DNA of 63,594 bases, counting the filler, from Candidatus Aminicenantales bacterium (GTDB lineage Bacteria; Acidobacteriota; Aminicenantia; Aminicenantales; Saccharicenantaceae): the NCBI GenBank assembly GCA_049512315.1. It is 4 parts of 4 records of this genome, joined end to end, with 100 filler letters (N's around TTAATTAATTAA, not from the genome) between each part and the next. Parts side by side here need not be neighbours in the genome. Positions count along the whole stretch, not along the records: positions 20,268 to 36,312 come from JBEKXF010000048.1; positions 36,413 to 52,285 come from JBEKXF010000049.1; 2 more parts are not named here. The stretch is one strand, 5' to 3'. Positions within the stretch are counted from its first letter, which is position 1. The number at the start of each line of letters is the position of its first letter. Made by a program: the position numbers. Shown in pieces: positions 36,001-45,000 of this stretch.

Positions 36001-39000
36001 GCCGCGGTCTTTGCCTTGCCTTCAAACCGTCTCGCGATAAGAATCATCAACGAACAAAACAAAATCCTTACGAGTAAGCCGCTGAATTCCCTTTCCGTTT
36101 TCATCTTGCTCCTCATCAACATGACTTCTGACCTTCTCTTGTCTGGGTTATGAATGCGCACGTTACATCCCTCCGGGCACTTACCTGTAGCGCTCGGGAA
36201 AGTCGGCGGTGAGGCCTATGCTAGCCATATCAATAGGCTTGAAGCCGAGCTTCCAGGCGGGAGAATCGGGCCGCAGCCTGAAATCTTTCTTTGCGGGATC
36301 CACGAACAGGGGNNNNNNNNNNNNNNNNNNNNNNNNNNNNNNNNNNNNNNNNNNNNTTAATTAATTAANNNNNNNNNNNNNNNNNNNNNNNNNNNNNNNN
36401 NNNNNNNNNNNNGCATCCTTGGAAGGTTTACAGAGACCGGTTCGCAAGCGAACTACCCGAGAGACCCTAGGTGATGACAAAAGCGGAAAGATTCACGTTG
36501 CCCAGGACCGGAAGTATTCACGTTGCCTTGACATCGCTTTTGTATCGATTGACATCGATCCGAGGCCGAGAATATCATCCCTATGTGATGAGAAGCGTTG
36601 TTCCGGAGCCTATGATGCTGGGCGTATGTGCGGGGTCAAAGCGCAATTTCTTATCTCCAACTCGAAGGGAAGGACGGCCATGAAAAGAACCCTTGTCTTT
36701 TTGTCGCTGGCTCTGCTCGTCCAAGCTTTGGGCATGGCTGGGGCACAAGAGGCCAAGGACCCTGTCGCCGACAAATATTCCGCGCCCCTGCAGAAGATCT
36801 TCGACCTCGAAGCCCGGTTCGCTCCTCTTCACCCGGCTCTGGGGAAGGTCTATCCGGTCGCCATCGTCGAAAATAAGAAGTTCTATTTCTTCGATCCGGC
36901 TCCCGGGGAGAAGGTGTATCGCCTCGTTCGGACCGTCCCCGACACGTTCAATATCCTCACCGGGATCCGGGCCGCCATGCCCCTCGCTTTTTGGGACAAC
37001 CGCATCGCCTGCGTCGTGACCGGAGAGATCTTCGGCGAACCCGACGGCTACGTTTTCATCTTTCACGAGTTCGTGCACTGCGCCCAGTGGGATTGCTGTG
37101 AACAAAAGCTCAAAGAGGGATTGTCGATCTATCGGGAGGCGATGAAGAACAAGGATTGCATGTGGGAGCTCCAATACCCGTTTCTTTATATGAACCCGGC
37201 CTTCATCAAGTCCTATTTCGCGCTCTTCAAGGCCTGGGACGGGAATGATACCGCGGCGGCAGAATCCCTGAGGGCGACCTTAGACAAGGCGCTGTCGCCC
37301 GCGGAGTGGGAATACCTCACCTGGCAGGAATGGAAAGAGGGCTTGGCCAGGTATCTTGAGAATCGGATGCGCGAGGTCGTCGGCCTGCCCGAAAACAAGG
37401 GTGGCGAAAACCCGCCTTTCAATCGCGTCACGTTCTATCGCGGCGGGGATAAGCTCATCGGCTTCCTTGAGCGGCGCCGGCCGGGGATCGTCAACGACCT
37501 GGAGAAGCTCTACCTGGGGATCAGCGCCGCGAAAAAGGAAATTCCTTGATCATCGTCGTACTGCCCAAAGTCGTTGCCAAGCGGGATTGATTTTTTTAAT
37601 CTGTCGCCAGATCCGGAGCCTCACCCAAAAACTGATCCGGCATATTCACCTTTGCCGCCCATAGGGATTCTTGACATCGCCAAGCCGCCGGAAGTATCCT
37701 CCCGACGTGATGAATAGAAAAGAAGATTCAATGTCCGGCACAGCAGAACGCTACGTTGCAGAAATGCGAATACTCGATACCCTCATCTATGTTCAATGAA
37801 ACCACTGTACCGTCGTATGCTCCGGAGGATGAAGGCGAAGGAGGAACAATCGGCGCCGAACGCGGCCGCAGGAGCCGTCTGGTTCCTCTATATCCTCGGA
37901 TGTTGCGACGGGTCCTTCTACACCGGAGTGACCACCGATATTGACCGCCGGCTCCGGGAGCACCAGGAGGGCAAGGCCTCTCGCTATACCCGGACCCGGC
38001 GCCCCGTCGTTCTGGTCTACCAGGAGGAGTGCGGCACCCGTTCCCAGTCCCTGGCGCGAGAGTGTGCGGTCAAGTCCCTAAGCCGGCAGCACAAGGAAGA
38101 ACTCATCTCCGGATGGAAATCCGATCATGGACGGCCGCCGTCTTGATACCACTCTCCCACCATATTGGAACTTTACCCCCCCAGACACAGCGTCTCCGTC
38201 AGATCAGCCAAGTCCGTGACGTGCCCAATTTCGGCAAACAGCCATCTCTTTTTCCTCGTTATCCCATCCGGCGGGGGATGGTTTCGTGGGGGATGGCGAT
38301 GGCCAGGACGAACAGGAGGCCGAGGATGTTCAGCACGGCCAGGCGGCCGAGGAGCTTAGGGATGCCCAGGAGCGGGATCACGAACGCTGAGGCCAGGACG
38401 ACGCTGAGAAACGACCCGAGAAGGTCAACGCCATAGCCCGCTCCCGGGTGGGGGCTTTCGCTGAGATAGAGCCGGTTGGCGGCGACAAAGAGATAACCGG
38501 CCAGGACACCGAAAGCGAGAAGGAATAAAAAGGGGAGGATTTCGGGCCCCCGTCTTTCGGTCATTTTCAAGCCTAGGACAAGGAGCCCGGCGGATCCCGC
38601 CTGGACAGCGGCCAGGTCCATCGTGGCGGGCCGTTTTCTCTGCCGTCCCGCGAGGGAGCCGGCGAAGAGCCCGGCCATGAAGGCCGAAAGGAGCAGCGAT
38701 ATCTTCCCGTAGACGTACCCGTAAAAGGCCTGGAAGGCGATGAGGACGGCCATTTCGACCAGGATCGACGAGAACCCCGCGAGGGCCACGGGGATGAGAA
38801 AACGGACCGGCGAACGCCTCCTCTTCCAGGCCATCAGGGCCAGGGCCAGCCCCGCCAGGACAAGAGGAAAGTCCAGGAGCCAGAACGCGGGGACCCGGGC
38901 GAAGAACCTGAGCGCGGCAGATTCGATGCCCTTGAACTGGGTGGCCCACAGGACGGAATGAAAATAGTAGCTCACCGGGACGAGGTCCCGGTCGACAAGT

Positions 39001-42000: not shown

Positions 42001-45000
42001 CTTTGAAAAGAGGCTGCCGATGTTGAGGTGGGAGACGAGCTCCGAGCCGTAGCCGGCCCCGTCCGTGTCCGTCCCGAACACATGGAACCCACCCCCACCC
42101 GCGGCGAGCCTGTAGCCGGCGTCACGGAGCTCGCGGTTCGTCCTGTCCCAGATGATGATATTTTTTTCCGCCAGGCCGTTCCGCGAGATCCAGCCCGCCA
42201 GAGCGAGGGAAATCTCGGGACGGGTGCTGATCGCCCGGCCGCCGATCGTGTTGACCTTGATCCCGACCCGGTCCTCCGGCCGGAAGACCGAGAGGACGGC
42301 GCTCCTCTCTTCACGTTCCCCCGTCAGGAGCCCGAATCCTCTGGAAAACATCTTGAGGATCCTGGCCTGCTCTGCTGGGCTGCCCGGATCCGTGAGGCCG
42401 CCCGACCGGACGATGACGACTCGGGAATTGGCCATGGCAAATCCATGATGACCGCTTTTTCCGGGGTTGTCAACAAACCCTCCTCGTAAGGCGGGCGGGA
42501 ACCGGCATGGTGCCACCCATCTCTTCGGGAAAGTCTCTGAGCTTGCCAAGTCCACTTCGGTCGTCTATATTAGTTTCATGAGAATGCGCGGAGGTTCAGC
42601 ATGAATGCGATCCATTGGGATAGATTCGCGGCCACCCTCACTCTCCTCTTGGCGCTGACGATCTTGTCCACGGCGTCGGCGCCGGCCCAGGAGAGGAAGG
42701 CCAATCCGGCCCTGGCGGCCCTGCTTCCGCAAGCCGAAGCCTGGAAACCAGCCGAAGCGCCGCAGAGCTTTTTCTCCGAAAGCCTCTATGAGTATATCGA
42801 CGGGGCCGCCGAGAGCTATATGAGCTATGACTTCAAGGAGCTTCTCGTCGTCCAGCTCAAGAAGGAGGGGACGGAGGCCACCCTGACCGTCGAGATCTAC
42901 GACATGTCGGGGCCGGGCAACGCATTCGGCATCTTCAGCGCTGAGCGGTACCCTGAGAACAAGCCCGTTCCGGTCGGGGACCTCGGGTACCTCGAAGGCG
43001 AGGCGCTGAATTTCCTGTCAGGACGCTACTATGTGAAGCTCCTCAGCTTCGGCCTGGGAGAAGGGACCGCCCCGGCCCTGACCAATTACGGCCAGAGGAT
43101 CGCCGGGGCCGTCCCGGAAAAAGGCGGCCTCCCGCCCCTTCTTCGGGTGTTCCCGCCCGGGGGGCTTGTCGCCCGGAGCGAAAAGTTCGTCAAGAAGAAT
43201 TTCCTGGGCTACGAGTTCCTCCACGACGGCTTCCTGGCCACCTACAAGATTGATGGCCAGGAGGTCGACTGCTTCGTGGCCGCGGCGGACTCGGAAAAGG
43301 AAGTCGAAACGGCGCTCGGCCGGCTCCTGGACTTTTTCGCCAAGGACAAGCAGGTTCCGGAAAAGACGGCCCTGGGTTATCGCGTCAAGAACCGCTATTC
43401 CCAGCTCACGTATATCGGCCATGTCCGGAACGTCCTCTGCGGCGTCCTGCGGGTTCCCGACGGCCTGGGATCGGCCGGAGAAAAACTGCTCGGGGCGTTG
43501 ACGGATTCGCTGGCCAAGATTCTGGCCGCCAAGGGTTGAAACCCTGCGGATCGCACCTTTTGAGCGGGAGAGACGCACGATAAAAGGCCCGGCAGTGGAT
43601 GACCATAAATTTTTCCGCTTCTCGGTCGGCCTGATCCTTATCTTTGTCCTGGGGATTGTCCTGAAGGCGGCCCGGGAGGTCATTTATCCGTTCATTCTCG
43701 CCATTTTCATCTCTTATGTCGTCGACCCGATCATGGCTTTTCTCCAGCGACTCAAGATCCCCAAAGCGGCGGCCGCCGCCATCATCCTCCTCGGGGCCTT
43801 CGTCGTCCTTTCCCTCATCGGCCTCGTCGTCTATTCGAGCGGGAAAACCCTGGCCGCGGAGCTCCCCCGGTTTGAGCAGAGACTGACCGACCTCACGGGG
43901 TGGCTCGAGAAAGGTGTCGGCGGGATCCCTCTCAAACGCCAGGTCGCCTCTTATATCGAAAAGATCAACCTCCAGGGTGCCGCCTCCTTTGTGCTGGGGG
44001 CCCTGGGCCCCATCCTCGGGCTCTTCGGCAAGCTCTTTCTCCTTTTCCTGTTCCTGGCCGTCATCATGTTCGGGAGGGGCAGAATCACGGTCAAGGTCCG
44101 GAAATTCCTGAGCCCGGAGAGGTCAGCCCAGGTTATGGAGGCGCTCGAAAAGATCAACTTCCAGGTCCGGAAGTACCTGGTGATCAAGACTGTCTTGAGC
44201 CTCATCAACGGGTTCATTGTCTGGGCCGTCCTCGCGCTGTTCGGCGTGGATTTTGCGCTCCTCTTCGGCTTCCTGGCTTTCCTTCTGTATTACATCCCGA
44301 ATATCGGCTCCCTGGTCGCCACCGTGCTCCGGGTCGGTTTTGCCCTGTTCCAGTTCGGGACGATTTGGACCCCGCTCTGGGTCCTTGTCATCACCGTCGG
44401 AGCGGACAATGTCCTGGGGAACATGATCGAGCCCCGGATGATGGGCAAGGGACTCGGTTTGAGCCCTCTCGTCCTCATTTTTTCTTTGGTCTTCTGGGGT
44501 TGGCTCTGGGGGATCCCCGGGATGGTCATGGCGGTCCCCCTGGTCGCGGTCATCAAGATCGTCTGCCAGAACGTCCCTTCGCTCCGGCCGGTCGCCGTCC
44601 TGATCGGCTCTTAAGCGGCTCCGGGCGGGAGTCCGGAGGCCGGACCGCTCATTCGTCCCCCTCGACGATAAAGGCCTCGGGAGAGATCTCCTTCATCTTC
44701 CGGCCGAGATAGCTCTTGAGGGCCTTCTGGGCGGCCCTCTGCTCGGCAGCCTTCTTGGACGGGCCTTTCGCCTTGGCCAGGGGTTTGCCATTGAGTGAGA
44801 CTTCCACGGTGAAGGTCTTTTTGTGCTCGGGCCCCTTGGCCGTGATGGTCGTATAAGCGGGCGCGGGGAGATCGGCTTTCTGGAACAGCTCCTGAAGGGC
44901 CGACTTGTAATTGTTGATCTGGAAGGTCTCGGTTTGGATGGGCTTCAGAGTCGGGGCGAGGAGACGGTGGATGAACGCCCGGGCGGCCTCGAAACCTCCG

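Follow-up and report, generated by a model that had tools for sequence, protein, structure and literature searches.

A candidate extracytoplasmic version of the AmmeMemoRadiSam system encoded by an Aminicenantales bacterium

Memo and AMMECR1 are both conserved in humans. To our knowledge, all characterised radical SAM enzymes reside in the cytoplasm or in organelles, where SAM, reductant, and Fe–S assembly occur. In bacteria, the AmmeMemoRadiSam system comprises AmrA/AMMECR1 (TIGR04335), AmrB/Memo (TIGR04336), and AmrS (TIGR04337), and RNA base modification has been proposed, as a prediction, to be its function (Balaji and Aravind, 2007; PMC2034487); 'secret' has 0 occurrences in the main text of that article. 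No paper describing an exported AmmeMemoRadiSam was found in the literature searched, although a study of Memo-AMMECR1 systems (Burroughs et al., 2019, JBC), cited in PMC7159879, may list signal-bearing forms. A radical SAM enzyme is tied to a periplasmic function in the HXS antiphage system (PMC13128918), as here, but that enzyme lacks a signal and is proposed to be cytoplasmic. Furthermore, flavinylated extracytosolic electron transfer by NapH-like and DsbD modules has been described (Meheust, 2021; PMC8238504); some relatives carry AmrS as a fusion with FMN_bind plus PF12801 or with modules of the DsbD type, and the main text of that article contains 'radical' once, in a reference title, and mentions neither DUF362 nor Memo.

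The window analysed here is a stretch of 63,594 nucleotides, filler included, in which four contigs of Candidatus Aminicenantales bacterium (GCA_049512315.1) are joined, and the locus of interest lies on contig C49 (window positions 36413-52285). All three AmmeMemoRadiSam models pass their cut-offs in this genome, and export signals, a dedicated DUF362 partner, and a membrane protein combining MFS and spermidine-synthase-like (SpdS-like) parts are the features of the present module that set it apart from the described system. On balance, we favor the view that this locus encodes those parts of an extracytoplasmic AmmeMemoRadiSam that lie together here, a proposal that spans export, DUF362, the MFS-fold protein, and the electron steps.

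AmrS, its export signal, and the Memo-AMMECR1 fusion

The AmrS radical SAM enzyme (40418..41539, minus strand; 373 aa) scores 374.8 bits against TIGR04337 in a profile search (cut-off 220); its CxxxCxxC cluster motif is conserved, as are its N-terminal and C-terminal Cys sets. In an alignment that took in 72 of 79 candidates, chosen by coverage, C23, C27, C37, C85, C89, C92, C301, C304, C326, and C329 are invariant among 73 sequences and C20 is kept in at least 90% of them; these numbers are those of mature AmrS, the full-length number minus 35. Among proteins of solved structure, AmrS has sequence relatives only in the glycyl-radical activases, pyruvate formate-lyase activating enzyme included (E 6e-5); it falls far below the cut-offs of these families and has the extra Cys sets and an export signal. 

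The protein begins with MNRRDFFRSAAGAGLVLGTGLPSLCSRLSA, a twin-arginine signal already recognized in an earlier note on this DNA; the signal peptide covers approximately residues 1–30 (41450..41539, minus strand), with cleavage presumably after LSA. The marks of a Tat substrate, namely an RR-x-F-hydrophobic motif at the N terminus followed by a hydrophobic core and an AxA site, were located by our own script, with a TATFIND-like rule and not the TATFIND program itself. The motif is shared by 117 of the 120 nearest homologs (107 pass the rule, 10 have the motif only), and the remaining 3 show neither. With a looser script, 76 of 80 AmrS proteins of GTDB loci showed RR together with a hydrophobic stretch; by eye, its four misses comprise two with the motif, one truncated at the end of its contig, and one without an in-frame motif. 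As a control for chance, the rule was applied to the 30 radical SAM matches of the genome: 3 satisfy it from one start codon or another, but RR stands at residues 3–4 only in the window AmrS, the other two being internal matches. Signals are kept in Aminicenantes, Zixibacteria, KSB1, Calditrichia, Latescibacterota, Terriglobia, Poribacteria, Phycisphaerae, and others. As the same note had reported, the genome encodes tatA and tatC, both on contig C6, and a second, cytosolic set without signals (AmrS on contig C35, AmrA on C38, Memo on C1).

Sec-type AmrS signals were detected by script in 31 of 80 metagenome loci. Sec exports unfolded chains, which fits badly with Fe–S loading, and these signals therefore count against the export reading. 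They would be easier to understand if the leaders were relics or served to anchor enzymes that act on the cytoplasmic side of the membrane, where Fe–S and SAM are supplied; one AmrS (P0137), with one K/R before and four after its N-terminal helix, has the charge pattern of a cytoplasm-facing anchor. Such a cytoplasmic role is nevertheless very improbable, given that RR-x-F-L, the hydrophobic core, and the AxA site are kept across phyla, that the signals of the partners are coordinated, and that the SAM-binding domain of the membrane protein is placed outward by two methods.

Phylogenetic trees are informative regarding the trait itself. Among 223 AmrS domains, all 101 RR-bearing forms (101/101) fall into one clade of 116 (support 0.96), with RR in 0 of the 107 others, and among 300 AmrS sequences a single clade of 199 (0.954) takes in every RR, KR, and Sec/TM form. 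The trees exclude partial or split matches as well as 28 near-redundant Aminicenantes loci. Strict monophyly of the RR forms, which held in the 223-domain tree, was rejected, since five RR sequences group with Sec/TM forms in the 300-sequence tree. With RR, KR, and Sec-type signals within one clade, the conserved trait, as read from sequence, is export and not Tat as such.

The fused Memo-AMMECR1 is encoded on contig C9 (78824-80281), starts with MKTIPALLMAFLIAPLVAGA, and scores 250 bits against TIGR04336 and 180.9 bits against TIGR04335, both above cut-off. The Sec-type signal attributed to it holds: a Sec-like start was found in 27 of 27 fused proteins of the class sample, whereas 0 of 3 stand-alone AMMECR1 proteins have one. 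The catalytic-type residues (His/Asp/Cys of Memo, Cys/Asp/Arg of AMMECR1) H69, H101, E155, H156, D210, H213, C251, C364, D389, and R391 are present in 52 of 52 fused proteins, among them the RGChG cysteine and DxR motif named by Balaji and Aravind (2007). The fusion adjoins AmrS in 24 of 43 non-Aminicenantes loci versus 0 of 37 Aminicenantes-like loci. In all four genomes of genus g18 (4/4), Memo-AMMECR1 bears a signal although the sole AmrS has none and no membrane SpdS-like match is present; because this genus exports Memo-AMMECR1 without an exported AmrS, the parts of the module can separate, a point against the preferred reading.

The DUF362 protein and its predicted complex with AmrS

The start codon (ATG) of AmrS overlaps the stop codon of the DUF362 gene (41536..42435, minus strand; 299 aa; PF04015), whose product has no signal peptide of its own, in agreement with the earlier note. 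Its structure model (pLDDT 96) shares the fold of the LarA/nickel-pincer racemase superfamily (clan CL0471): a LarA homolog is matched with a VIA Z of 16.4 (rmsd 3.5 over 219 residues), the next unrelated structure having a Z of 5.0. The His174/Lys184 spacing of 10 in LarA equals that of His163/Lys173 in DUF362, but DUF362 lacks, by its length, the second LarA domain, and the profile alignment to LarA is not significant (HHalign probability 0.5%). All of larB/C/E are present in this genome, and larC occurs in 31 of 35 genomes with the DUF362 ortholog versus 71 of 106 other genomes. A requirement of DUF362 for the nickel-pincer cofactor is weakened by this HHalign result and by four near-complete ortholog-bearing genomes (G018, G075, G117, and G138; 95-99% complete) in which larC was not found.

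The DUF362 protein next to AmrS is an AmrS-dedicated paralog with an invariant HNPNKYH loop, which is missing from all five DUF362b paralogs listed. The AmrS–DUF362 complex was predicted with a score of 0.72 (runs 0.72, 0.73, 0.65), the best of three controls scoring 0.00; contacts agree by at least 88%, and the partner pLDDT is at least 92. Of pairs with solved complexes, 116 of 157 reach the mark set for this score, versus 2 of 215 mismatched ones; with the own alignments used here, these counts apply only roughly. Among solved structures, none is close by sequence to the AmrS or DUF362 chain, and DUF362 has no PDB sequence match. The predicted interface on DUF362 is its HNPNKYH loop, and on AmrS the modelled contacts include N88, which lies between cluster cysteines, and residues 99-104, together read as the outer cluster face. 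Interface residues are G38 in 48/48, Q104 in 44/48, and Y36 in 35/48 of the DUF362-linked AmrS, versus R38 in 18/28 and D104 in 20/28 of export-clade loci without DUF362, a co-variation that is confounded by kinship. In four nested AmrS that have lost the interface residues, no DUF362 ortholog was found in three of the genomes (completeness not given) and one has it, and AmrS is found at E <=1e-110 in 34 of 35 genomes with the ortholog. These residues are specific targets for testing the interface. Binding through the HNPNKYH loop, as modelled, could account for the export of a signal-less DUF362, and it is probable that DUF362 binds AmrS in this manner and, where signal-less, would ride out with it.

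DUF362 might instead be the substrate, with AmrS serving as a glycyl-radical activase or maturase whose target is the HNPNKYH loop; the reaction might then take place in the cytoplasm, before later export of the pair. Glycyl-radical activases are the nearest named families of AmrS, the invariant K184 accounts for several of the best modelled contacts, and DUF362 has the fold of LarA, an enzyme in which a lysine tethers the cofactor (PMC11770544). However, the contacts are at N88 and 99-104, with the invariant DPIEKKP motif outside them, and AmrS without DUF362 is common in the export clade, so we consider DUF362 improbable as the substrate. Because many export-clade AmrS loci are without it, DUF362 is not obligatory: among 40 genome-drawn loci, only 5 of the 24 in the export clade hold it.

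The membrane protein

The third gene of the cluster (38259..40421, minus strand) has a putative CTG start that would overlap the AmrS stop codon, and a CTG/TTG overlap of this kind was seen in 10 of 10 relatives looked at. The product had been described as a membrane spermidine-synthase-like protein; the SpdS-like fold and SAM residues stand, but a function as spermidine synthase does not. In the structure model (pLDDT 93.5), an SpdS-fold domain (38883..39812, minus strand) is inserted into a membrane part of 14 helices (7 + 7). The model resembles VMAT2 (VIA Z 25.9, rmsd 3.9 over 328 residues) and SotB (Z 24.2), the two halves are homologous (HHalign 97%), and two homologous six-helix bundles lie in the MFS arrangement. 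Predicted loops average 1.3-3.4 K+R inside and 0.3-1.9 outside, and MFS homology likewise places the SpdS-like domain outside. 

In an alignment of 51 of 52 candidates, selected by coverage (50 relatives), the domain keeps GGGxxG, E293/D295, and D325. Position 274 is A/L/V in 38/51 and E in 4/51, and position 343 is N in 37/51, D in 8/51, and S in 3/51; by alignment to PDB aminopropyltransferases, we take these to be the acidic residue after GGG and the catalytic Asp. As both aspartates are replaced, spermidine synthase was rejected as the function. Aminopropyltransferases and the 'fused MFS/spermidine synthase' families (NF037959, PRK03612) share the SpdS fold and SAM-binding residues, but the present protein is below all their cut-offs and its domain lies between the two MFS halves, facing outward. 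A search of the ESM Atlas returned unnamed PF01564 clusters only. The gene is thus predicted to encode a protein with the complete fold of an MFS transporter, into which a SAM-binding domain that faces outward is inserted.

The MFS part would tentatively move SAM out, or SAM breakdown products in, with the cofactor held in the outward domain. Alternatively, the protein could itself be a catalyst at the same location, its domain transferring methyl or aminocarboxypropyl from SAM to an envelope substrate flipped by the MFS part, as one step of an envelope-modification pathway. The full SpdS fold with its SAM-binding residues, the conserved N or D at position 343, and matches, each at Z 17.8, to the flippase LtaA and to METTL13, a methyltransferase of SpdS fold, speak for catalysis; we regard it as unlikely, since the supply of SAM outside is left unexplained and no recurring lipid or glycan genes were found among the cross-lineage neighbours scanned.

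Distribution and proposed mechanism

The conserved module proposed earlier was recovered in 80 loci counted independently of an earlier 110-locus set: AmrS neighbours DUF362 in 72, the SpdS-like gene in 60, and fused Memo-AMMECR1 in 24. In the 40 genome-drawn loci, the 24 of the export clade hold the fusion in 20 and the SpdS-like gene in 14, and the 16 signal-less loci hold neither. No RNA holder was listed. In relatives, AmrS is fused to FMN_bind + Fer4_5 (P0134, P0135, P0146), to DsbD_2 (P0131, P0135, P0142), and to FMN_bind (P0145, P0158). NapH-like genes occur in 8 of 80 AmrS loci and on contig C9 of this genome beside a Tat-signal DUF362, with none at the window AmrS locus; ApbE is present in the genome, with no FMN_bind match.

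The export reading of the earlier note is supported by the outward topology of the SAM domain, the predicted AmrS–DUF362 complex, and the fusions to extracytoplasmic electron-transfer modules. AmrS would very probably receive its Fe–S clusters in the cytoplasm and then leave through Tat in folded form, and the C9 Memo-AMMECR1, with active sites intact in its sequence, would follow by Sec. DUF362, which has no invariant Cys in a 59-sequence alignment (59/60 candidates), would dock on the cluster-binding face and most plausibly relay the electron that activates AmrS, fed by a NapH-like membrane polyferredoxin, a step we hold with less confidence than the SAM transport; FMN-binding/NapH-like fusions would do the same electron-feeding job in other lineages. 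The three Amr domains would run the reaction of the cytosolic set on an envelope-located substrate. Because AmrS scores nearest glycyl-radical activases, we would guess at a protein or cofactor of the periplasm and not at RNA. If exported AmrS were an Fe–S electron carrier or SAM sensor and no longer a radical enzyme, steady SAM export would not be needed, and the fusions to electron-transfer modules would suit such a role; yet the cysteines typical of radical SAM enzymes are invariant, as are the motifs around them, and the SAM-binding partner accompanies AmrS in 60 of 80 loci, which makes loss of radical activity scarcely credible.

Under the preferred extracytoplasmic reading, the export-tagged AmrS, its predicted partner, and the outward cofactor domain suggest that radical chemistry runs outside the cytoplasm too; the widespread exported clade would then need SAM export and periplasmic one-electron reduction. 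It is doubtful that a complete periplasmic radical-SAM machine exists in the specific form of Tat-exported AmrS, DUF362 as electron donor, and the MFS-fold protein as SAM exporter; if it does, DUF362 and the MFS-SpdS proteins would gain their first functions, and relatives with Sec signals would point to Fe–S assembly outside the cytoplasm, of which we know no case. A periplasmic Memo-AMMECR1 copy would narrow the candidate substrates and make the old question of the Memo/AMMECR1 reaction testable.

Several recurrent neighbours were set aside. Clusters 46 and 52 are opposite-frame shadows of NapH-like and DUF362b genes and not families, and most 'LarA' labels are shadow matches from an over-long query, being real only in L224-L228 and L231. 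AI-2E and DUF6599 were rejected as core parts, both being lineage-specific; the DUF6599 protein of the window (42601..43539, plus strand, divergent; PF20244), which has a Sec-like N-terminus, neighbours AmrS in 34 of 37 Aminicenantes-like loci versus 3 of 43 other loci.

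Organization of the module and its genomic setting

The module lies on contig C49 of the genome under study, within a window of four contigs joined by N runs. Three minus-strand genes with overlapping stop and start codons encode a DUF362 protein (42435–41536), the radical SAM enzyme AmrS (41539–40418; above the TIGR04337 cut-off), and a membrane protein of 720 amino acids (40421–38259), whose CTG start was inferred because the same overlap occurs in 10 of 10 relatives inspected; a DUF6599 gene is divergent to this set. The observation of a signal-bearing AmmeMemoRadiSam module in this genome is confirmed. 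As the earlier note had claimed, the other AmrS, AmrA, and Memo of the genome all lack a leader, the Memo-AMMECR1 fusion on contig C9 carries a Sec-type leader, and both tatA and tatC are present. The exported module would be a new form of the already known AmmeMemoRadiSam system. No description of an exported system was found in the literature searched (main texts, with few subscription papers) and phrases such as "periplasmic radical SAM" gave 0 matches there; the gene-cluster supplement of PMC8238504 may include such loci.

Elsewhere in the window, the start of C49 (36419–36590) shows 80–97% identity in translation to the termini of at least eight further contigs; it probably belongs to a multi-copy element at which the assembly broke off. 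An ORF at 48762–49667 (minus strand), which we take to resemble release factor 2, seemingly lacks its N-terminus in frame, which fits the programmed frameshift usual for this factor. On contig C48, 27492–36161 holds a run of large genes with lower GC, presumably resembling secreted glycoside hydrolases.

Probable export as a trait of one AmrS branch

The twin-arginine (RR) signal claimed for AmrS was borne out by homologs and loci. A TATFIND-like rule was passed by 107 of the 120 nearest homologs, with the motif in 10 more; since these are close kin, a wider GTDB sample carries more weight, in which 76 of 80 loci from approximately ten phyla passed a looser script. RR was also seen by eye in 19/19 additional high-scoring loci, and among 30 radical SAM matches in the genome under study, only one shows the RR motif at its N-terminus. 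When the mature AmrS domain alone served as query, so that no bias toward leaders is possible, 150 representatives were returned. In a domain tree (n = 223), all 101 RR forms fell within one clade of 116, and none occurred among the other 107. After addition of 77 metagenome sequences, a clade of 199 (support 0.954; FastTree values, 332 columns) included all 120 RR and 26 Lys-Arg (KR) forms, 30 Sec and 15 Sec/TM-labelled forms, and 18 sequences with the labels none, noRR, or uncertain, including several fragments; the RR forms were not strictly one clade any more. Because all these leader types share one clade, export appears to be a trait of one large AmrS branch, achieved by more than one route. 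Plain Sec-type leaders, found in approximately 30 relatives and often beside the same partners, would favor export as the selected trait; they conflict with cytoplasmic Fe-S loading.

AmrS from loci L248–L275, L278, L290, L293, L294, L299, and L306 carries either an ordinary Sec-type leader or a membrane fusion and forms one clade (0.897), often near Memo-AMMECR1 or the spermidine-synthase-like (SpdS-like) gene; L271, within this range, is an RR form. Lys-Arg replaces the twin arginine (TKREFL) in 27 loci (L276–L327) interleaved among RR forms in the tree. Furthermore, variants among representatives P0126, P0132, P0161, P0137, and P0193 include N-terminal domains of beta-propeller or CBM11-like type, leader-bearing triple fusions of the form Memo-AMMECR1-AmrS, and an AmrS that contains an intein.

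Partner proteins

The claim of a conserved module held in the 80 loci, of which 72 contained DUF362, 60 the membrane protein, and 24 fused Memo-AMMECR1. A phylum sample of 301 genomes supplied 40 AmrS loci, chosen by score: of the 24 in the export clade, 20 included fused Memo-AMMECR1 and 14 the membrane protein, and the 16 signal-less loci included neither. Two unpublished genomes, G023 and G048, are counted in the tallies 207/301, 102/141, and 46/141; all other claims are independent of them. Across 31 genomes of the class, a hydrophobic leader, as previously proposed, preceded 27/27 fused Memo-AMMECR1 proteins and 0/3 stand-alone AMMECR1 proteins; active-site residues were invariant across 52 fused proteins. 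A counter-case to coupled export of AmrS and Memo-AMMECR1 is genus g18, four genomes of which have a divergent signal-bearing Memo-AMMECR1 with signal-less AmrS only (L180, L181, L185, L186; L190–L193) and no membrane SpdS-like match.

DUF362 adopts the LarA fold by model comparison, and an alignment of relatives revealed no invariant Cys. It lacks a signal in Aminicenantes-like loci, Zixibacteria, and L040/047/049/050/053; elsewhere it has RR, which the script detected in 22 of the 68 DUF362 proteins scored and which was present in 17/17 further loci. The absence of a signal beside a Tat substrate suggests that DUF362 is co-exported with AmrS. The AmrS–DUF362 complex prediction scored 0.72 (best control, 0.00), with contacts agreeing at ≥88% and partner pLDDT ≥92; the score mark was reached by 116/157 solved and 2/215 mismatched pairs, a calibration only roughly valid for the alignments used. 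The model thus supports binding, short of proof. The predicted interface places the invariant HNPNKYH loop of DUF362 against AmrS 29–38, 88, and 99–104 (mature numbering); GILGG/GVLGK replaces this loop in five NapH-linked DUF362b paralogs. Within the export clade, AmrS enzymes linked to DUF362 and those not linked to it have different residues at the interface, and four nested Terriglobia AmrS with no DUF362 in the locus have unlinked-type residues, a DUF362 ortholog being found in one of their genomes and not in three. High-scoring AmrS occurred in 34 of 35 genomes with a DUF362 ortholog (in the exception, the gene lies at a contig end), and kinship inflates all these association and interface counts.

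In the membrane-protein model (pLDDT 93.5), a spermidine-synthase fold stands between two sets of seven helices. This helical part matches MFS transporters (VMAT2, Z 25.9; SotB, Z 24.2), and its two halves are homologous to each other. MFS proteins begin on the cytoplasmic side, so helix 7 would take the SpdS-like domain out and helix 8 return, in agreement with positive-inside counts in 51 sequences. In the same 51, the SAM-binding residues are kept, and the domain probably binds SAM; the residue that follows GGG is A/L/V, the catalytic Asp is mostly replaced by N, and the domain is probably not an aminopropyltransferase.

Possible electron supply and the nickel-pincer question

Among 22 representatives scanned for fusions, three have FMN_bind plus Fer4_5 ahead of AmrS, three have DsbD_2 there (one representative belongs to both groups), and two have FMN_bind alone. 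Such modules move electrons across the membrane, according to Meheust et al. (2021; PMC8238504). All three FMN/Fer4_5 fusions have an extra helix ahead of AmrS; by homology, this helix would place AmrS on the outside, charge counts round it being indecisive. DUF362-type loci include a NapH-like gene in 8/80 and DUF362b in 10/80; in the genome under study, a Tat-signal DUF362b precedes a NapH-like membrane polyferredoxin (C9:48954–51453; L126). From these fusions and neighbors, we infer that DUF362 may be an electron relay for AmrS.

The same genome holds above-cut-off larC (C22:46344–47465), larE (C7:68500–69279), and larB (C65:2011–2634), and no LarA (Lar_N) match at 96.6% completeness, which raised the idea of a nickel-pincer cofactor for DUF362. 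Its five DUF362 genes are candidate clients; four near-complete genomes with an ortholog and without larC speak against the cofactor as a DUF362 requirement. Three further RR-bearing DUF362 genes lie near DUF6599 genes on C4, C22, and C62. A signal-less LarA-family gene lies directly 3′ of Tat-signal AmrS in Memo-AMMECR1, DUF362, AmrS operons of six genomes from two families (L224–L228, L231). In 13 loci of one Aminicenantes subgroup (e.g., L054:11369–17119, L024:13187–15462), the membrane gene is succeeded by genes of heterodisulfide-reductase-like type and of the 2-oxoacid:ferredoxin oxidoreductase type.
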